The notes: generated from the letters alone by a model not told the origin. 64,000 bases of DNA from Minisyncoccota bacterium (GCA_036261925.1 DATAJW010000013.1:22544-86543), one strand, 5' to 3'; counted from the stretch's first letter, positions 5,704 to 64,000 are shown. A program made the numbers and translations.

Positions 5704-7413
5704 CTAGCGCGCGAGGAACGGCCAGATGTATTCGCTATGGCGGTGCCAGCCGTATACGGTGGCGAACCGGTCCGACGGCGAAGCTATCTGGGGAAGCACG
5801 ATGCCGTCCAAGTCGTTGGGTACAGCATACAGGAAGTCGGGGGCATGCGTAAAGGCTGCCGGGAAATCGCCCGCGATGAGGTTGCTCGCCGCCTGGATAT
5901 CGATGAGCGCCTGGGCGGGGTCGTTCTCGGTGCGCGCACGCGCGAGGAGCTCGTCCACGGTCGGATTCGCGTACCCGGCGATGTTGAGGCCGGGATCCGC
6001 GACCTGCCCCGAGTCCCAGAACGCGAAGAGGTCGCGGTCGCGGCCGATGACCTCGCCGAAGAGCAGCGCCTGGTACGCGCGCGGGCGTATGACGTCGCGC
6101 GTCAGGCTGCCGGAGTCGTAGAGCTCGACCGTGACGGGGATGCCGAGCGCCTCCCAGTCCTCCTTCACGAGGCTCGCGATGGTCTTCAGCTCGGGCACGC
6201 TCGAGGTCTTGAGCGTGATGCCGGGAAGCACGCGGCCAGCCTTTTCCCAGCCGACGCCTTCCGCGAACTTCCAGCCGGCGTCCGCGAGCGCCGCGCGCGC
6301 TTGCGTCATGCGCCCGCTCGGGTCGGGCGGAGTAGGGGACTCGATGCCGATGCCGGGCGGCACCGGCCCGAGGCTCGGCGTGCCGTAGCCACCGAGCACC
6401 TCGTTCACGATGCGCGTGCGGTCTATCGCGAGCGAGAGCGCCTCGCGTACGCCGTCGTCCCCGAAGTCCGTGTACTCGGCCGGGTTATAGAAGACGCCGA
6501 ACATGCGGGCGTAGGGCGCGCGGAGCGCGCCCGCGCGCTTGAAGCCGTACGCGCTCTCGACCGCGCCCCGGCGCAATGCCGCGGCGAGGTCGTCCGCGTT
6601 CGAGTAGAATCGGAGCGTGATGCGATCGAGGAACGGCCGGCCGGCCGTGAACCCCTCGAACGCCTCGAGACGGTATTCCTTTATGACGCCGTCGCGATCG
6701 CGGACGACGCGGGTGACCGCGAACGGGCCGGCGCCCACCGGACGCTCCATAAGCGGCGAGAAGGGGAACTGGTCGTTGCTCACGTCGCGCCAATGCCGTG
6801 CAGGCAGGATGCCGAGCGTCGTATCCTCGAGGAATGGCGCGTACGGCTGCGGCAGGATGAAGCGTACGGTACGCGCATCCACGACCTCCGCGCGGATGTT
6901 CGCCCAGTTCGCGTACTCGGGCGACTTCAAGTCCGGGTCCTGCGCCTTCTCGACGGTGAACACGACGTCCTCGCTCGTCACCGACGAGCCGTCGGAGAAC
7001 GTGGCGTCCGCACGGATGACGAAGGTGTAGGTACGGCCGTCCTCGGAGACGGCATAGCTCTCGGCGAGCCGGGGCTCGAGCAGGCCGTCCGCCCCGATGC
7101 CCATGAGCCCCGCGTACGTCAGCGCGGTGAGGTCCCGGTCGGCATCGGTGAGCGCGAGCAACGGATTCACGAAGCGCGGGTTCCCGACGACGCCTTCGGT
7201 GAGGCTGCCGCCTTCGGCGGGCACGCGGACGAGGAAGGATTTCTGGAGCGCGCGCAGCCCCACGAGGCAGGTAGCGACGAGCGCAATGCCGAGCACGGCG
7301 GCGATGAGCTTGTCGCCGGGCGCGAGCGTGCCTATGAACGCGAAGGCGCCGCGCATGCCGCGGCGTTCAGAGGTGCTCTCGAGTGAGGTAGGGAAGCGGT
7401 CGAATCGCTTCAT
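5704..7413 (-). CDS. ABC transporter substrate-binding protein, family 5 (peptide/nickel type)
   Basis: N-terminal TM/signal, SBP_bac_5-like length and motifs, 569 aa. Confidence 0.6.
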   Translation of the reverse strand: MKRFDRFPTSLESTSERRGMRGAFAFIGTLAPGDKLIAAVLGIALVATCLVGLRALQKSFLVRVPAEGGSLTEGVVGNPRFVNPLLALTDADRDLTALTYAGLMGIGADGLLEPRLAESYAVSEDGRTYTFVIRADATFSDGSSVTSEDVVFTVEKAQDPDLKSPEYANWANIRAEVVDARTVRFILPQPYAPFLEDTTLGILPARHWRDVSNDQFPFSPLMERPVGAGPFAVTRVVRDRDGVIKEYRLEAFEGFTAGRPFLDRITLRFYSNADDLAAALRRGAVESAYGFKRAGALRAPYARMFGVFYNPAEYTDFGDDGVREALSLAIDRTRIVNEVLGGYGTPSLGPVPPGIGIESPTPPDPSGRMTQARAALADAGWKFAEGVGWEKAGRVLPGITLKTSSVPELKTIASLVKEDWEALGIPVTVELYDSGSLTRDVIRPRAYQALLFGEVIGRDRDLFAFWDSGQVADPGLNIAGYANPTVDELLARARTENDPAQALIDIQAASNLIAGDFPAAFTHAPDFLYAVPNDLDGIVLPQIASPSDRFATVYGWHRHSEYIWPFLAR

Positions 7414-11537: not shown

Positions 11538-12431
11538 ATGGCAACGCTATACCAAGAACGCTCCGCCAACACCTGGAAGACCTGGAGCCTCATGGTCGGG
11601 TTCTTCCTGCTGGTCATCCTCGTCGGGTGGGGCGTCTCGTACTACTACGGCTCCCCCGTTATCCTCTATGGCGCGGTGGCGTTCGCGCTCGTCGGGAACG
11701 TGGGGAGCTACTGGTTCAGCGATAAGCTGGTGCTCTCGATGACGCACGCGAAGCCCGCGACGCGCGAGGAGCACTTCGATTTCTATACGGTGACCGAGAA
11801 CCTCGCCATCACCGCAGGCCTCCCGATGCCGAAGCTCTACGTGATAGAGGACCCGGCGCCCAACGCATTCGCGACGGGACGCGATGAGAAGCATGCAGTC
11901 GTCGCCGCGACGACCGGGCTCCTGTCGATGATGACCCGCACGGAGCTCGAAGGCGTCATCGCGCACGAGCTCTCGCACGTGAAGAACAAGGACATGCTCG
12001 TGATGACGGTCGCGGTCGTGCTCGCTGGGTTCCTGGCCATCATCGCTGACATCTTCCTGCGCATGAGCATGTTCGGCGGTGGCGACCGCGACAGCAAGGG
12101 GAACGCGCTCTTCATGGTTCTTGCCGTGGTCGGCATCGTTCTTGCGCCGATAGCAGCGCAGCTCATCCAGCTCGCTATCTCCCGCCGCCGCGAGTACCTC
12201 GCGGACGCGTCGGGCGCGCTCCTCACGCGTTACCCGGAGGGCCTCGCGTCCGCGCTCCAGAAGATTGGAAGCTACGGGGGAGCCATGAAGACCGCGAACC
12301 ACGCGACCGCGCACCTCTTCATCGGCAACCCGTTCGGCGCGCGCGCCGGCAACCTCATGAACAAGCTGTTCGCGACCCATCCGCCGGTGGAGGACCGCAT
12401 CAAGCAGCTGCTCCAGCCTGACGGACGGTAG
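11538..12431 (+). CDS. htpX: Zn metalloprotease HtpX (M48 family)
   Basis: HELSHV zinc motif, 4 TM, 297 aa. Confidence 0.85.
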   Translation: MATLYQERSANTWKTWSLMVGFFLLVILVGWGVSYYYGSPVILYGAVAFALVGNVGSYWFSDKLVLSMTHAKPATREEHFDFYTVTENLAITAGLPMPKLYVIEDPAPNAFATGRDEKHAVVAATTGLLSMMTRTELEGVIAHELSHVKNKDMLVMTVAVVLAGFLAIIADIFLRMSMFGGGDRDSKGNALFMVLAVVGIVLAPIAAQLIQLAISRRREYLADASGALLTRYPEGLASALQKIGSYGGAMKTANHATAHLFIGNPFGARAGNLMNKLFATHPPVEDRIKQLLQPDGR

Positions 12432-12460
12432 AGGGAATCCGTGCTATAAAAGTGCCATAC

Positions 12461-27140: not shown

Positions 27141-27240
27141 CTAGTCTCCGACATAGCTCTCGTATGCTCTGCATGCAACCATACGAAAGCTCGTTCGGCG
27201 CATATCGATATAGCCTAGATATGTTGATATGATTTCACTT

Positions 27241-27312
27241 CGCTCTCGTAGTTCAATGGATAGAATAGAGGTTTCCTAAACCTTCGATTCAGGTTCGACT
27301 CCTGACGAGAGC
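27241..27312 (+). tRNA. tRNA-Arg (anticodon CCT)
   Basis: acceptor GCTCTCG/CGAGAGC, anticodon loop TTCCTAA, T-loop TTCGACT; 72 nt. Confidence 0.8.
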
Positions 27313-35179: not shown

Positions 35180-35191
35180 GTATGGGAACAC

Positions 35192-35848
35192 GTGCAGAAT
35201 ACCGTTTTTGCGGCTAGTATTCAAGCCATGGAGCTCATCCGACTGTCGGATATCTCATTGAATGAGGCGGCCGCTAAAGCGGCCGCTGTCCTGCGTGACG
35301 GCGGCATCGTGCTCTTCCCGACCGATACCCTGTACGGCCTCGCGGTGGACATCGCGAACCCGGATGCGGTGGAGCGATTGCGCCAGCTCAAGAGCCGGGA
35401 GCGCCGCAAGCCGTTCTCGGTCATCGTTCCCGACGTCGAGCATATCGAGAAGCATGCCGAGCTGCATTCGGATGCGCGCGCGCTCGCGGAGACGCACTTG
35501 CCGGGCGCGCTCACGCTCGTGCTGCCCGCGAAGCGGCACATCTCGCCCGACGTGACGCTGAACGGGACCATCGGCATCCGCGTGCCGAACGACGCCTTTT
35601 CCCTCGCGCTGGCGCAGGTCTTCGGGAAGCCCTACTCCGCGACGAGCGCGAACGAGACGCGTCTCACGACGCCCGCGACCGCGCACGGGGTCATCGAGCA
35701 CTTCAAGCTGAAGGCGCATCTCATCTCGCTCGTCGTCGATGCGGGAGCGCGCGCCGGCGGCGTGCCGTCGACGGTCGTGACGTTCATCGATGGAAGGCCG
35801 TACGTTACGCGCGAGGGAGCTATTTCGCGCGAGGATCTCGGCCTTTAA
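35192..35848 (+). CDS. tsaC: L-threonylcarbamoyladenylate synthase TsaC/YrdC/Sua5 family
   Basis: VLFPTDTLYGLAVD...KPFSVIV...SANETRLTTPATAH YrdC motifs; true start possibly MELIRL (35228). Confidence 0.8.
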   Translation: MQNTVFAASIQAMELIRLSDISLNEAAAKAAAVLRDGGIVLFPTDTLYGLAVDIANPDAVERLRQLKSRERRKPFSVIVPDVEHIEKHAELHSDARALAETHLPGALTLVLPAKRHISPDVTLNGTIGIRVPNDAFSLALAQVFGKPYSATSANETRLTTPATAHGVIEHFKLKAHLISLVVDAGARAGGVPSTVVTFIDGRPYVTREGAISREDLGL

Positions 35849-58719: not shown

Positions 58720-59916
58720 CTAGTCCTTGTTGTTGGTGAAGATAGCGGCCGCGTCGACAAGCGGATTGCCGCTTCTGACGATGGTCTCTTTGGCTCGGCC
58801 ACGGTTGATGCGGACAAGCTCAAGCGCGCGCTCCAAGGAGAGCGTTTCTCCTCGGCTGGTGGCGTCGGCAATATATGCCCTCGCCAGCTCGAGCTCGGTA
58901 TCGAAGTCCTTCCTTTCCGCTCGACGCTGCGCGTCTTCGCGGGCGGACAATTCGGCGTCTGCGCCGAGCGCGCTGCTCGGTTCGATGCGGACGACGTTGA
59001 GGCGGGTGATCTGGATGCCCAGGTCGACCACATCCCCGACGCCGTTCTCGCGAACGATGCGCAGGAAGACCTCCATTTCCCGTTGCCGGTTATGCAAGTC
59101 ATCTTTCGGGGCGGCATGGATATACCGCAACGGCTCGTCGATGGCGGGCAGCAGCCTATACTTATCGGGTGCGATTGCGAAATCCTCTTCCGCTATCTTG
59201 CCGTCCGTACGAGGCAGTGTACGCAACTTCGCGTCGCTGACCATCATCAAGAGGCTCGCCGCGAGCGGCGCCTTGAGGAAAACGAATTCCTCCCAGGTAT
59301 AGTCGCTCGCGAACACACGCGTCTCTTCGCCGATGATGTCGCAGAGGATCTTCTTGACCCCCTCCTCGCCGCCGGAGTTGAGATACTTGATGATGCGATC
59401 GGCGTCGACATCCTCGCCGCCGTGCAGGCCATCAGCATCGGGCTCGATGGTAATGGCCACTTCGACGGTGACTGCAGCGCCGGCAGCGGCCGTATCCGAT
59501 CCGGTATTCGCGCGGCATCGGACATCTTCATAGGTGAAGTTCCTGTTCATCCGCTCGACTTTGACCGGATTCACTCCCACCATGAAGGGGAAGTACGGGG
59601 CGAGCAGATGCGTCCCTTCCGGAATGAGGACGCGGATGCGCCTATTCCAGAACGTGAGGATGCCCTTATGCGGCGGATCCTCGGGAACGCGCACGAACCC
59701 GAACGCGATCATCAGCGCACCGATAGCGCCGATAGCCGCGAAGTACCGCGGGCCGACGAGAAGGTAGTAGGTGCCGAGCAGGATGAAGCCGATAGCGCTT
59801 GCCCAAAGGATCGTCGTGATCCTTTGGAGAAATGCACGGTCGACTATTACCGCCACCAGCATCGCCACCTGAATGGCTAGCCAGAGCTTGAGTACCAGAG
59901 GCATAGCGCCCTCCAA
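58720..59916 (-). CDS. SPFH/band-7 (stomatin/prohibitin-like) domain protein
   Basis: N-terminal 2 TM, SPFH core (GILTFWNRRIRVLIPEGTHLLAPYFPFMVGV...), C-terminal coiled coil. Confidence 0.5.
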   Translation of the reverse strand: MEGAMPLVLKLWLAIQVAMLVAVIVDRAFLQRITTILWASAIGFILLGTYYLLVGPRYFAAIGAIGALMIAFGFVRVPEDPPHKGILTFWNRRIRVLIPEGTHLLAPYFPFMVGVNPVKVERMNRNFTYEDVRCRANTGSDTAAAGAAVTVEVAITIEPDADGLHGGEDVDADRIIKYLNSGGEEGVKKILCDIIGEETRVFASDYTWEEFVFLKAPLAASLLMMVSDAKLRTLPRTDGKIAEEDFAIAPDKYRLLPAIDEPLRYIHAAPKDDLHNRQREMEVFLRIVRENGVGDVVDLGIQITRLNVVRIEPSSALGADAELSAREDAQRRAERKDFDTELELARAYIADATSRGETLSLERALELVRINRGRAKETIVRSGNPLVDAAAIFTNNKD

Positions 59917-60036
59917 GATTCGTTTGACCTGTCAAAGGCCGTTCCACCTGCTATAATAGCACAATATATAGTGTTTTGTCAAGGTGCTCCCAGCAATCGA
60001 ATACCGAGGCCAGTGCCGGCTATTTCATGGAAATGT

Positions 60037-60100
60037 ACTGGAGAGAGGACTCGCACCAGCACCCCCGAAGGCCCAACCTACGGATGGAAGACGGGACCAA
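60037..60100 (-). pseudogene. tRNA-Leu-like 3' fragment (T-arm variant plus acceptor CTCCAG), partner of the 5' fragment at 60225-60270
   Basis: ...CCTTCGGGGGTGCTGGTGCGAGTCCTCTCTCCAG parallels the tRNA-Leu 3' end with substitutions. Confidence 0.35.
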
Positions 60101-60138
60101 CCATCTTCCATTCCCGCGGCAATTCGTTATGCACACAG

Positions 60139-60219
60139 TGCCGAGGAGAGGACTCGAACCTCCACCCCCGAAGGGACCTGCTCCTAAGGCAGGCGCGCCT
60201 ACCATTTCGCCACCTCGGC
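60139..60219 (-). tRNA. tRNA-Leu (anticodon TAG), long variable arm
   Basis: reverse complement GCCGAGGTGGCGAAATGGTAGGCGCGCCTGCCTTAGGAGCAGGTCCCTTCGGGGGTGGAGGTTCGAGTCCTCTCCTCGGCA. Confidence 0.75.
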
Positions 60220-60224
60220 ACTCT

Positions 60225-60270
60225 ATGCACAACTCGCGTCTACCATTTCGCCACTCCAGCGTTCCGGTAT
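60225..60270 (-). pseudogene. tRNA-Leu-like 5' fragment (acceptor GCTGGAG plus D-arm TGGCGAAATGGTAGACGC)
   Basis: D-arm identical to tRNA-Leu(TAG) except for 1 nt; acceptor complementary to the 3' fragment at 60037-60060. Confidence 0.35.
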
Positions 60271-60325
60271 CTTATCAGAAAAAGACGAAAGCCGGACGAA
60301 TCCGGCTCCGGTCTTTCACTTTGAT

Positions 60326-60401
60326 TGGTCCGCCTGCCTGGGCTCGAACCAGGGACCATCTCCTTAAGAGGGAGTTGCTCTACCAACTGAGCTACAGGCG
60401 G
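60326..60401 (-). tRNA. tRNA-Lys (anticodon CTT), CCA encoded
   Basis: reverse complement CCGCCTGTAGCTCAGTTGGTAGAGCAACTCCCTCTTAAGGAGATGGTCCCTGGTTCGAGCCCAGGCAGGCGGACCA. Confidence 0.85.
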
Positions 60402-60452
60402 ATGTCCGAAGGACTTTCGGATTCTAGCGTCTTCATGAAAAATAGTAAACAG

Positions 60453-61595
60453 CTATTCGACGACCCGGCGGAGATGCGGCGGGACATGGACGAGCACCTC
60501 GTACGGGATGGTGCCGATACGTTCCGCTATGTTGGCGACCGAGTTCGGATGCTCGGGCGTCCGGCTGATCGCGATGACCCGGTCGCCCTGCGCGACGCCG
60601 CCCGCTCCGGTGATGTCGAGCGTGGTCATGTTCATGGAAACGCGTCCGGCGATGGGGCAGTCCTCCTCCCGGATGCGCATGCTGCCGGCGCTCGAGAGGC
60701 GTCGGTCGATGCCTTCGTAGTAGCCGACCGGGACGGTCGCGATGCGTGACGGCTGCCCGGCGATGAACGTCGCGTTATACCCGACGGCGTCGCCTGCGGG
60801 AATATCCCTGATGCTTGTCACGAGCGAGCGCAGCTCGAGCACCGGCTTCACTGCCGATTTCCCGCCGGGCGCGGTATCGAACCCGTAGAGGCCGATGCCG
60901 ACGCGCGCGACGTTCGCGCGGCATTCGGCGGAGAAACGCACGCCCTTGGTGGCGGCTATGTGCCGGAACTCGAGCGCCGGATAGGCGGCTTCGACGAGCG
61001 CGAGGGTCTCCATCCAGGCGGCGAGCTGCGTGCGGCTGAACGCTTCGTCCTCGCTATCGGCGTCGGCCAGATGGGTGGCGATGCCGACGACCTTCGCATG
61101 CGGACTCTTCTTGAGCGCTTCGAGCGCGCGCGGAAGGTGCGCTCTCGTGATGCCTTGGCGGTGCATGCCGGTATCCACCTTTACGTGAAGCCGGACATCA
61201 TGCGTAAGGAGCGGCAGGAGCTCGGCAAGCTGCTCTCGGTCGGTGAGCGCGAAATCGACGTGCGCCAGCCGCGAGCGCGCCATATCGCGCGGCCGCACGT
61301 AGCCCATGACGACGACGCGCGAGCGTATGCCGGCCTGGCGCAGGCGGTGCGCCTCGTACAAGGAATCCACCATGAAGAACGCTATATCCTCCGTGTCGAG
61401 GAGACGCGCGATCAAGCCGAGGTCGTGGCCGTACGCGTTCGACTTGAGGACGGGCGCTATGCGGACGCCCGGATGCCGCTCCTGGTACATGCGCAGGTTA
61501 TGGAGCAGGTTCGCGCGCGAAATGGATACCTCGACCAAGGGCGCATAGCCCGAAAGCCGGCGCTCTAGCGTACGGAAGCGTTCGAGGATTCTCAT
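60453..61595 (-). CDS. alr: Alanine racemase (start at internal Met)
   Basis: VLKSNAYGHG PLP-Lys motif region, C-terminal beta domain; the ATG abuts the tRNA-Leu(TAA) 3' end. Confidence 0.85.
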   Translation of the reverse strand: MRILERFRTLERRLSGYAPLVEVSISRANLLHNLRMYQERHPGVRIAPVLKSNAYGHDLGLIARLLDTEDIAFFMVDSLYEAHRLRQAGIRSRVVVMGYVRPRDMARSRLAHVDFALTDREQLAELLPLLTHDVRLHVKVDTGMHRQGITRAHLPRALEALKKSPHAKVVGIATHLADADSEDEAFSRTQLAAWMETLALVEAAYPALEFRHIAATKGVRFSAECRANVARVGIGLYGFDTAPGGKSAVKPVLELRSLVTSIRDIPAGDAVGYNATFIAGQPSRIATVPVGYYEGIDRRLSSAGSMRIREEDCPIAGRVSMNMTTLDITGAGGVAQGDRVIAISRTPEHPNSVANIAERIGTIPYEVLVHVPPHLRRVVE

Positions 61596-61597
61596 GG

Positions 61598-61682
61598 TAC
61601 CGGGGGCGGGACTCGAACCCGCACGGCATCGCTGCCAAGAGTGTTTAAGACTCTCATGTCTAACCAATTCCATCACCCCGGC
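61598..61682 (-). tRNA. tRNA-Leu (anticodon TAA), long variable arm
   Basis: reverse complement GCCGGGGTGATGGAATTGGTTAGACATGAGAGTCTTAAACACTCTTGGCAGCGATGCCGTGCGGGTTCGAGTCCCGCCCCCGGTA. Confidence 0.8.
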
Positions 61683-61707
61683 TTCGGGGTTATTTTTACC
61701 ATATGTC

Positions 61708-61781
61708 GGAGGCCCGAGCGGGAATCGAACCCGCGCATAACGCTTTTGCAGAGCGCCGTGTTACCGCTTCACCATCGGGCC
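61708..61781 (-). tRNA. tRNA-Cys (anticodon GCA), U73 discriminator
   Basis: reverse complement GGCCCGATGGTGAAGCGGTAACACGGCGCTCTGCAAAAGCGTTATGCGCGGGTTCGATTCCCGCTCGGGCCTCC. Confidence 0.8.
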
Positions 61782-62492
61782 CTTCCTCTCCAATTCCGAA
61801 TCCAAATCCTTCAGTCTAAGCCCTCGGATATTGAAGTACTTCGTAAATATACCGTACTTTCTTTCAAGAGCTAATCCAACGAGTTCCGGCGTTGAATACA
61901 TAAGCTTGAAGAGTCGTATGCTATCGCGTGCGCCGTACCGCAGTTGGTATGTGCCCTTGCTGCTGCCATGAGCAAACAGTCCCTTGCCCGTTACGCCAGC
62001 TTCATGGACAAGACGTTCATGCATGGATGAAAGGAATGCGCGACTCCCAGAGGTGAAGATGCTCAACAGTCGCTTGGGGTTCCCGTTCGGTGCCCGTTCA
62101 ATGCATACGCACCCATCGCCATCGAAATAGCCGAGTACGAATGCGGGGAAGTAGAATAGCGGAATATGCGGCAATACCATCGTGAGTGATTTTGCAGGTG
62201 TCATACCGATTTCAATGAGCGCATCATATAAGGCATGGCTTCCGATTGAAAGACAGTAGGCCAGCTTACGATTCTCCGATCTATCCTCGACGCGTATCGT
62301 ATGCTGCGACTTCATGAGGTCGCGGATTAGAGCGATTCGATCCCTATCAGTGCTCAGCACCCGAACGTATTTGCCCCTGATATTCTGTGAATACTGCATG
62401 TTCCCATCCGCATATAGATATCCCAGCACGTATGCCATGGATACCGACCATGAATCGAAAAATGCTTCGTCTACGGGAGTTTTCTTACCCAT
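61761..62492 (-). CDS. Double-motif LAGLIDADG homing endonuclease, free-standing, in AT-rich island
   Basis: two LAGLIDADG motifs (VLGYLYADGN and VLGYFDGDGCV); GC clearly lower than flanks; 3' end overlaps the tRNA-Cys 5' end by about 20 nt. Confidence 0.75.
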   Translation of the reverse strand: MGKKTPVDEAFFDSWSVSMAYVLGYLYADGNMQYSQNIRGKYVRVLSTDRDRIALIRDLMKSQHTIRVEDRSENRKLAYCLSIGSHALYDALIEIGMTPAKSLTMVLPHIPLFYFPAFVLGYFDGDGCVCIERAPNGNPKRLLSIFTSGSRAFLSSMHERLVHEAGVTGKGLFAHGSSKGTYQLRYGARDSIRLFKLMYSTPELVGLALERKYGIFTKYFNIRGLRLKDLDSELERKGPMVKR

Positions 62493-62551
62493 ATTCCTAA
62501 TGATAAGGAATGTGGATAGATAAAAGCTGAAGAAAAAATAAGAAAGCTAAA

Positions 62552-62875
62552 CTAGCTCTCGCGGGAGATATCGTCGAGATGCTGGCGATTGCGCTCGCCG
62601 TGGTCTATCTCGAAGCGTATGAACGGGAGCCGCGAGAAGCGGGTGGTCTTCTTGAGCTCGTTGCGGAAGAGGTCCTTGTGGCGCATGAGGAAATTGATGG
62701 CCTGGTCGTCCTGGCCCTCGGGGAAGACGCTGACGAATATGGTCGCGTTCTTGCGGTCCTTGGAAAGATGCGCGCGCGTCGGCGTGATAAGGGTCTCGCG
62801 ACCCGCCTCGCGCGCGATGTAGCGGCCAGCGGCCTCTATGAGTATGGAAACGGCTCGGTTGTCGCGGTCGCTCAT
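62552..62875 (-). CDS. rbfA: Ribosome-binding factor A
   Basis: RbfA KH-like pattern (ATIFVSVFPEG...LKKTTRFSRLPFIRFEID). Confidence 0.8.
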   Translation of the reverse strand: MSDRDNRAVSILIEAAGRYIAREAGRETLITPTRAHLSKDRKNATIFVSVFPEGQDDQAINFLMRHKDLFRNELKKTTRFSRLPFIRFEIDHGERNRQHLDDISRES

Positions 62876-62877
62876 GA

Positions 62878-64000
62878 CTATTTCTCTATCATGCGATAGG
62901 CGAAGAGCGTGTCGCCCGGGGCAGCCTCCGCCTTCCCGTCGATCTGCAGGCCGAACTCGCCCTCGACATGGATCTCCTTCACGTCGGCGCGCGCCACCTG
63001 GAGGTTCGTGAGCTTCGCGGTGCCGATAGGGAGGCCGCGACGGTCGACCTTCACCATATCGCCCACTTCAAGAGCGCCCGATATCCAGCGCGCGCCGAGC
63101 GTCTGCTTGGTGCCGGTCGCATTGAAGGCCTTGAGCACCTTCGCCTCGCCCGTTATCTCCTCGACGGTGATGCGCGGCGCGCTTGCCGCGACGAGCTTCT
63201 CGATGTGCTCCTTGAGGTCGTAGATGATGGAGAAGGTCTCGATAGCGACCTGGCTTCGGTCCGCGAGGTCGCGCGCGTTCGAGTCGGTGCCGACGTTGAA
63301 TGCGATGATGTTCGCGCCGCCGGCCATCGCGAGCTTCACGTCGCCTTCAGAGACCGCGCCGAGGCCCTCGCCGATGATGCGGACGACGACGCGCTCGTGC
63401 TCGACCTTCGCGAGCTCGTGCTTGATGGCTTCCACGCTGCCGGAGACGTCCGCCTTGAGGATGAGGGGGAGCAGCGCGGTGCCTTCGGGCAGCGCCGCGT
63501 CGCGCGCCTTCGGCGCGTCCGCCGCGATGGCCGCGGCGAGCTTCTCGGCCTCCTTCTTGTTCGCGACCGCGAGGAACGGGGTGCCTGCCGCTGGCAGCGC
63601 GTTCCATCCGGCGATACGGACCGGCTGGGAGGCCTTCGCATCCTTGATGCGGGTTCCCTTGAAGTCCTCGATGAAACGGATCGGCGCGATAGCGGTGCTC
63701 GCGATGGCGTAGGTGCCGGTCGCGAGGGTACCTTCCTTGAGGATGAGGGTCGCGGTCTGGCCCTGCCTTGGATCCTGCGAGGATTCGAGCACGTAGCCGG
63801 ATGCGGCGGCGTCCGGATCGTAGGTGAGTTCGGCGAGGTCCGCGGTGAGAAGCACGAGGTCGAGCAGCTCCGGAATGCCGTCGCCGGACTTCGAGGAGAC
63901 CGACGCATAGGGCACCGAGCCGCCGAGACCTTCGAGGTAGATGCCTGCCTCGATGACGCCCATCTTCACGCGCTCGAGGTCGGCGCCATTCTTGTCCATC
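62878..64000 (-). CDS. infB: Translation initiation factor IF-2, C-terminal part (gene continues beyond window end)
   Basis: IF-2 domains C1/C2; ORF open at the window edge; infB-rbfA order conserved. Confidence 0.85.
   Translation of the reverse strand, partial: MDKNGADLERVKMGVIEAGIYLEGLGGSVPYASVSSKSGDGIPELLDLVLLTADLAELTYDPDAAASGYVLESSQDPRQGQTATLILKEGTLATGTYAIASTAIAPIRFIEDFKGTRIKDAKASQPVRIAGWNALPAAGTPFLAVANKKEAEKLAAAIAADAPKARDAALPEGTALLPLILKADVSGSVEAIKHELAKVEHERVVVRIIGEGLGAVSEGDVKLAMAGGANIIAFNVGTDSNARDLADRSQVAIETFSIIYDLKEHIEKLVAASAPRITVEEITGEAKVLKAFNATGTKQTLGARWISGALEVGDMVKVDRRGLPIGTAKLTNLQVARADVKEIHVEGEFGLQIDGKAEAAPGDTLFAYRMIEK

Follow-up and report, generated by a model that had tools for sequence, protein, structure and literature searches.

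A LAGLIDADG homing endonuclease gene, probably free-standing and mobile, in the 5′ leader of tRNA-Cys of a Paceibacterota genome

Introduction

Homing endonuclease genes (HEGs) are thought to persist mainly in introns and inteins, which self-splice out of essential genes. Free-standing LAGLIDADG reading frames outside introns occur in intergenic regions of fungal mitochondrial genomes, often beside tRNA genes. According to the tRNA-punctuation model of mitochondria, mRNAs are delimited by tRNA processing and carry little or no untranslated region (UTR).

Three described systems are the closest to the locus reported here. SegB of phage T4 is a GIY-YIG homing endonuclease whose free-standing gene lies within the tRNA gene cluster of the phage (PMC2330249). 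LAGLIDADG_3 proteins have been seen in 16S rRNA insertions of CPR bacteria, in a paper that does not mention tRNA (PMC11270868). A survey of tRNA introns in Patescibacteria described group I introns in the anticodon loop with few HEGs, all of them HNH, and does not mention leader-borne genes (PMC13011429).

In this study, a double-motif LAGLIDADG gene that runs into the 5′ end of a tRNA-Cys gene was analysed in a 64-kb window (the whole stretch of DNA under analysis) from a tiny Paceibacterota (CPR) genome with 65% GC. Its protein, its neighbourhood in relatives, its family and its likely mode of expression and spread were investigated by computational comparison.

Materials and methods

GTDB species representatives were searched with the infB gene of the window, which yielded 34 Patescibacteria loci, 31 of them evaluable for the HEG. 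A metagenome scan with the family alignment retained 80 loci with 35–57% identity. The overall comparison covered more than 110 related bacterial loci, designated by L numbers. Other thresholds are given with the results that they define.

Results

The HEG occupies 61761..62492 on the minus strand, where the preliminary description had placed a 243-aa reading frame with two LAGLIDADG motifs. The frame is intact, starts with ATG and encodes a 243-aa protein whose motifs, VLGYLYADG (D29) and VLGYFDGDG (D126), each end in a catalytic Asp; the assignment as a free-standing double-motif LAGLIDADG endonuclease draws on the ORF, Pfam, alignment and AlphaFold2. The gene lies in the 5′ leader of tRNA-Cys(GCA) (61708..61781, minus strand; ARAGORN and Rfam, 65.7 bits), the only tRNA-Cys in the window. 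An overlap of about seven codons with this tRNA had been noted earlier, and reading the sequence gives six codons and a stop, 21 nt in all (61761..61781, minus strand). The shared sequence, GGC CCG ATG GTG AAG CGG TAA, is the last 21 nt of the HEG and the first 21 nt of tRNA-Cys; it encodes GPMVKR followed by the TAA stop and forms the acceptor/D-arm 5′ strand and the D-loop, inside which the stop codon falls. The frame of the overlap and the junction are the same in related loci.

Upstream, 59 nt separate the rbfA stop from the HEG ATG. This AT-rich spacer (62493..62551, minus strand) travels with the HEG and is the putative promoter region of a leaderless HEG/tRNA-Cys transcript. It is followed by rbfA (62552..62875, minus strand; Pfam RBFA), the predicted upstream homology arm, and by infB (62878..>63999, minus strand) upstream of rbfA. 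The two genes are still adjacent, and the earlier statement that the element interrupts infB–rbfA has to be replaced: the conserved adjacency of rbfA and tRNA-Cys is what is broken. A terminator-like hairpin with a T-run across the rbfA stop codon (62542..62560, minus strand; a pattern match from a consensus scan) would part rbfA transcription from the HEG. Downstream of tRNA-Cys lie tRNA-Leu(TAA) (61595..61682, minus strand; ARAGORN), the probable downstream limit of the converted tract, and alr (alanine racemase), all on the minus strand. At 61593-61597 (minus strand) the ATG of alr shares one base with the encoded CCA of tRNA-Leu(taa) (..GGTACCATG..). The same one-base overlap is present in L005, L006 and L022, and its retention in relatives suggests that a host gene, too, starts leaderless directly after a tRNA.

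The AT-richer island of the preliminary description was recovered, with GC of 0.445–0.555 across 61700-62600 (0.49 over the HEG) against 0.60–0.72 in both flanks. Every HEG copy has a GC about 0.1 below that of its host (from 0.21 vs 0.33 up to 0.48 vs 0.63), and this constant deficit, whatever the GC of the host, marks the AT-rich island as a family trait.

The only Pfam match of the window protein is PF14528 LAGLIDADG_3 (E 4.7e-08, 33.6 bits, cut-off 22.5); no Hint domain was found, and the NCBIfam search matched no family. A record of the identical protein exists for a Candidatus Paceibacterota MAG. The search yielded more than 1,100 homologues, the nearest with 62% identity, so that no recent donor is known. 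D29/G30 and G121–C128 (the GYFDGDGC block) are invariant in an alignment of 35 homologues (46–62% identity), as are K101, S102, Q183 and R185. The AlphaFold2 model has two domains (pLDDT 92.8, pTM 0.91), and the model and Foldseek together reveal the tandem alpha-beta-beta-alpha-beta-beta-alpha fold. Foldseek matched the model with a probability of 1.00 to I-Tsp061I, I-AniI, I-DmoI, I-SceI and the I-OnuI family. I-Tsp061I is the best PDB fold, followed by intein-associated enzymes, I-AniI, I-DmoI and I-SceI, all monomeric LAGLIDADG enzymes with 9–19% identity to the window protein; it is also the sole match of the PDB sequence search (E 0.0077). Alignment to characterised families had been proposed as a route to the target site, but these sequence and fold matches are too distant for a target to be transferred.

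Five moderately diverged HEG pairs gave dN/dS values of 0.05–0.15. The invariant catalytic Asp residues, the confident fold and these values together indicate an intact enzyme under selection and not a pseudogene. Disrupted catalytic residues had been named beforehand as the sign of a dead gene, and both catalytic Asp are present in the window copy and invariant in the 35 homologues.

The region 59500-64000 was scanned against Rfam with permissive filters at E<=10. Four tRNAs were returned and nothing else, with zero matches to group I or group II intron models and no rRNA match, in agreement with the earlier remark that no intron or rRNA context is evident. ARAGORN and Rfam both find tRNA-Cys and tRNA-Leu intact, contiguous and uninterrupted. 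Three familiar settings of such genes were rejected on this basis: a group I intron-encoded endonuclease (no Intron_gpI match at E<=10, both tRNAs contiguous), an intein-associated endonuclease (LAGLIDADG_3 alone by Pfam, and an ATG of its own 59 nt past the rbfA stop), and the LAGLIDADG genes of CPR rRNA insertions (the HEG lies between rbfA and tRNA-Cys, with no rRNA match in the region).

Group I introns do occur in tRNA genes of Patescibacteria (PMC13011429), and LAGLIDADG genes are mostly intron- or intein-borne; the gene might accordingly be what is left of a group I intron, or of an intein, that once resided in tRNA-Cys or tRNA-Leu and lost its ribozyme or splicing domains. We consider such an origin extremely improbable, given the zero matches to intron models, the completeness of both tRNAs, the lack of any domain other than LAGLIDADG, and the position of the ORF outside the mature tRNA save for the 21-nt overlap; in addition, the reported patescibacterial tRNA introns sit in the anticodon loop, with HNH genes as their HEGs (PMC13011429). 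Of the three alternatives in the preliminary description, a free-standing HEG and a tRNA-targeting element are retained, whereas an intron remnant is dropped: the covariance models detected no intron embedding the ORF and no ribozyme in 59500-64000 at E<=10, and the tRNAs are intact.

Relatives with infB identities as low as 35% retain the order infB-rbfA-tRNA-Cys(gca)-tRNA-Leu(taa)-(alr)-tRNA-Lys-tRNA-Leu(tag). Comparison of the rbfA to tRNA-Cys spacer, as the preliminary description had suggested, located the HEG in 3 of the 31 evaluable GTDB representatives (L006, L021 and L022) in addition to the window. Elsewhere the gap is mostly short, 12–40 nt in most close relatives and up to ~210 nt in a few loci. 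In L005, the closest relative (infB 76%), the gap measures 34 nt and holds no HEG. When the flanks of L005 and L022 were aligned separately, a clean absence/presence of the HEG was obtained, bounded on the left by the last few rbfA codons and on the right by tRNA-Cys +1; tRNA-Leu is identical in the two loci. Occupied sites have an AT-rich spacer with no relation to the GC-rich native one found at empty sites, and since the native spacer is wholly replaced, the insertion point cannot be placed to a single nucleotide. A tblastn search at E<=10 of the unusually long empty spacers (L009, 209 bp; L019, L033, L035, L036) detected no credible HEG remnants.

Empty sites have the rbfA stop codon within a promoter-like T(A)GCGY-17 nt-TAGTAT, which ends 8–9 nt before tRNA +1. 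The spacers between rbfA and tRNA-Cys in HEG-free L005, L016, L020, L024 and L025 measure 12–34 nt, with the stop TAG in promoter-like hexamers: in L005 (5445-5484) it is part of the -35-like TAGCGC of tRNA-Cys, and in L016 it lies in the -10-like TAGTAT itself.

HEG and infB identities correlate over the 39 loci that have both genes (Spearman 0.57), an indication that much inheritance is vertical or within-clade. This correlation, the constant offset at which HEG GC tracks host GC, and the 62% identity of the closest known homologue would all suit an old, immobile resident that entered once in a Paceibacterota ancestor, descended vertically with many losses and no longer homes. The evidence from single pairs speaks against such a history. 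HEG identity is far above that of infB between L061 and L072 (70% vs 44%) and between L084 and L085 (96% vs 82%), and also exceeds it between the window and L039 (57% vs 40%), while the window and L022 display the reverse (HEG 45%, infB 76%).

The tRNA-Cys allele likewise departs from the host background. The window tRNA-Cys shares 95% identity with that of L002/L041 and 88–90% with those of L040, L042, L044 and L039, and just 73–78% with those of its nearest relatives L005, L007 and L022. The eight tRNA-Cys most similar to it all belong to HEG-bearing loci with infB identities of merely 40–56% (56% for L002/L041), and the loci with the nearest tRNA-Cys are those with the nearest HEGs. The window tRNA-Leu, by comparison, is host-like, with its best matches in HEG-free L007/L009, and rbfA is 78–82% identical to the nearest relatives and host-like except for the last 2–3 codons. 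A HEG-linked tRNA-Cys between a host-like tRNA-Leu and a host-like rbfA reads as the footprint of a gene conversion that introduced the ORF along with its AT-rich spacer and tRNA-Cys; the tRNA-Cys allele was probably co-converted with the HEG. An immobile resident is hard to reconcile with this match to distant HEG-bearing genomes, and the invariant catalytic residues and low dN/dS would be hard to maintain in a functionless nuclease. Premature stops were observed in L104 (161-870) and L059 (1450-2171), which end 223 and 70 nt before tRNA-Cys; these are probably decaying copies and would fit a cycle of invasion, decay and loss rather than long residence. We judge the immobile-resident explanation unlikely. 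Presence and absence among relatives, together with the signs of horizontal spread and co-conversion, instead support a mobile homing element, the support being comparative and indirect.

HEG-linked and HEG-free tRNA-Cys alleles differ at one D-loop position. Of 45 HEG-linked alleles, 22 have a base other than T directly after GAAG (in the window the C of GAAGCGG, ~61766), as has 1 of 25 HEG-free alleles (Fisher p ~1e-4, a test that ignores phylogeny, the difference being confounded with kinship and with the ORF stop codon). Such a base could be the mark of a linked allele, confer target immunity, or be due to selection acting on the ORF stop codon.

The association with tRNA extends across the family. 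Among the best 120 of the more than 1,100 homologues, most C-termini are translated tRNA-Cys, either GP[MV][VA]K.. or the read-through form ..GLQNRYARVRIPPGP. Among the 80 metagenomic loci, 71 end within 25 nt of a tRNA 5′ end or extend into or past the tRNA (53 at tRNA-Cys and 18 at tRNA-Asp(gtc)), and 7 reach the contig end or have no downstream tRNA called. The ORF ends between -18 and +30 nt of the tRNA 5′ end, or continues 80–117 nt onward to or just past the tRNA 3′ end. Distant relatives from viral contigs (24–35% identity) served as a control, and of these 80 just one adjoins a tRNA. This sole case, L131 (3001-3708 of a 427-kb viral contig), is a LAGLIDADG gene in the tRNA cluster of a jumbo phage, with its stop abutting tRNA-Trp. 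A phage vector was also considered and rejected: the viral-contig relatives are merely 24–35% identical, 79 of the 80 lie away from tRNAs, and no evidence of phage carriage was found among them. The 18 tRNA-Asp-class loci (in L082-L116) form a more distant sister subclade, with the gene between tRNA-Met(cat) and tRNA-Asp(gtc); in L101, L105, L111 and L114 no nucleotide (0-nt spacer) separates the tRNA-Met 3′ end from the ATG, a junction that resembles mitochondrial tRNA punctuation. A pattern wider than the preliminary description emerges from these comparisons: the window HEG belongs to a large clade that is always placed in a tRNA 5′ leader and shares the tRNA overlap as a family trait, and on the loci compared it is this association with tRNA that defines the clade.

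Sites of this type also house other nuclease genes. HNH reading frames were observed in the tRNA-Cys/tRNA-Leu(taa) spacer of L007 (5607-6134), L008 (5653-6171), L010 (5648-6253) and L014 (5801-6304), extending 23–38 nt into tRNA-Leu(taa). Pfam HNH/HNH_3 was confirmed for those of L007 and L014, and those of L008 and L010 share the motif. L024 has a LAGLIDADG_3 ORF (6279-6917, 212 aa) that shares 28% identity with the window protein and extends 10 nt into tRNA-Leu(tag).

The strong purifying selection, the conserved neighbourhood of a tRNA and of genes for ribosome biogenesis, and the resemblance of the fold to the bI3 and I-AniI maturases raise the question of domestication, in which the protein would have a host role in translation or ribosome biogenesis, as a maturase-like RNA/tRNA processing factor or a regulator. 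However, the HEG is missing from most close relatives, the nearest included, and its GC is below that of the host. In the sister clade the gene stands at tRNA-Met/tRNA-Asp with no rbfA nearby, from which it follows that the constant partner is the tRNA 5′ end and not the pathway. Moreover, pure LAGLIDADG maturases such as bI3 usually lose the catalytic Asp, whereas these are invariant here. On balance a domesticated protein is very unlikely.

For expression, the window copy has a -10-like TATCAT at 62505..62500 (minus strand), 7 nt before the HEG ATG, and no usable Shine-Dalgarno motif. No convincing -35 accompanies it, and a strict sigma-70 scan upstream of the ORF found no promoter; the promoter argument thus draws on the family and not on the window copy. 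Loci of the tRNA-Cys class carry a recurrent upstream promoter, TTGCAG-17 nt-TATAAT, with at least 9 of 12 consensus positions in 31 of 57 unique loci, compared with 2.3% of random positions. The -10 ends 6–8 nt before the start codon in 29 of those 31 loci, and a Shine-Dalgarno-like motif was found in 0 of the 57. Given this spacing and the lack of a Shine-Dalgarno motif, transcription should begin at or beside the start codon, thereby producing a leaderless mRNA that runs into the tRNA. The HEG message would in effect be the 5′ leader of pre-tRNA-Cys, and we infer that an RNase P cut at +1 would restore a normal tRNA. The HEG stop varies in position: it may lie as far as 18 nt upstream of the tRNA or in the D-loop, or be reached only after full read-through of the tRNA, and the overlap is on that account better seen as a by-product of an ORF without its own stop than as a conserved requirement. 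In copies with the stop inside the tRNA, that of the window included, the RNase P cut would leave a non-stop mRNA from which the stop codon has been removed. Elsewhere in the window, tRNA-Ser-gga, tRNA-Arg-cct and tRNA-Val-gac have a -10-like hexamer ~8–19 nt upstream of their mature 5′ ends (12400-12460, 27180-27241 and 35180-35240), and individual promoters hard against tRNA genes therefore seem usual in this genome.

Discussion

The likely explanation of the locus, which we hold with good though not full confidence, is that a free-standing LAGLIDADG HEG, still active or active until recently, has inserted into the 5′ leader of tRNA-Cys(GCA). The proposed enzyme would cut HEG-free alleles at or near the junction of the promoter and tRNA-Cys +1. 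Repair would then use rbfA and tRNA-Cys/tRNA-Leu as homology arms, and the recipient would acquire the ORF together with the AT-rich spacer and part of tRNA-Cys; the insertion, by splitting the target, would render the carrier immune. A promoter with its -10 ending 6–8 nt before the start codon would yield a leaderless ORF mRNA continuing into the tRNA, and an ORF without its own stop would run to the first in-frame stop, in the D-loop, which would account for the overlap. RNase P would cut at tRNA +1 and release a normal tRNA-Cys, so that the insertion would cost the host little and need neither intron nor intein. The constant position of the HEG in the tRNA-Cys leader is probably explained by this normal trimming, which would make the insertion harmless.

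The family would then achieve intron-like hiding with no splicing element, sitting without UTRs in a stretch of the tRNA precursor that is discarded. A more general reading, to which we give slightly less than even weight, is that the tRNA 5′ leader is a third safe harbour for HEGs beside self-splicing introns and inteins, and a general, unrecognised homing hotspot in CPR bacteria. Host RNase P, with 3′ tRNA processing in inter-tRNA spacers, would excise the element from the transcript, and the HEG would borrow the tRNA promoter or an upstream tRNA 3′ end for its leaderless mRNA. The leader-site nucleases found in Paceibacterota comprise LAGLIDADG genes at tRNA-Cys, tRNA-Asp and tRNA-Leu(tag), and HNH genes at tRNA-Leu(taa). 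If confirmed, the leader niche of the present family would explain the recurrent unannotated 'hypothetical proteins' beside tRNAs in CPR genomes. The family would also provide hundreds of natural LAGLIDADG variants against one conserved site, for use in specificity studies and meganuclease engineering, and a practical way into the study of leaderless translation and tRNA-linked mRNA processing in bacteria that are not in culture. It carries a warning as well, that tRNA-Cys alleles in these CPR genomes can be horizontally replaced.

The arrangement of a HEG as a tRNA leader was not found described in the full texts searched, a statement that holds for those texts only; the family is large, always at a tRNA leader and apparently undescribed. 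Fungal mitochondria, with their free-standing LAGLIDADG ORFs, differ in being an organellar setting, and we know of no such family there that is tied to one tRNA 5′ end or to a promoter/leaderless-start layout.

Among the described systems, T4 SegB is the closest functional analogue. Like the window HEG, it is a free-standing HEG among tRNA genes and absent from related genomes; it recognises tRNA-gene DNA and drives co-inheritance of neighbouring tRNA markers (PMC2330249), as the window HEG would do. However, SegB is a GIY-YIG enzyme of a phage, whereas the window HEG is a LAGLIDADG gene of a bacterial chromosome; and SegB is a separate gene in its cluster, whereas the window HEG fills the stretch from promoter to tRNA exactly, has no UTRs and enters the tRNA.

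The LAGLIDADG genes of CPR rRNA insertions are the closest taxonomic analogue, sharing the phylum, the superfamily, a patchy homing-like distribution and conserved RNA genes as sites. These genes lie inside 16S/23S genes, many in group I introns, and are mostly single-domain (PMC11270868), whereas the window HEG has two motifs and lies outside the mature RNA, in a tRNA leader. The archaeal enzymes I-Tsp061I (2dch) and I-DmoI are the best sequence and fold matches, two-domain monomers of ~200 aa with two catalytic acidic residues. They differ in being intron-borne in rRNA genes, with unrelated targets and 17–19% identity, and for these reasons the homology does not predict the target of the window HEG. 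Within the LAGLIDADG superfamily the window HEG is unexceptional as an enzyme; the novelty lies in its niche, its gene architecture and the sharing of both across a large clade.
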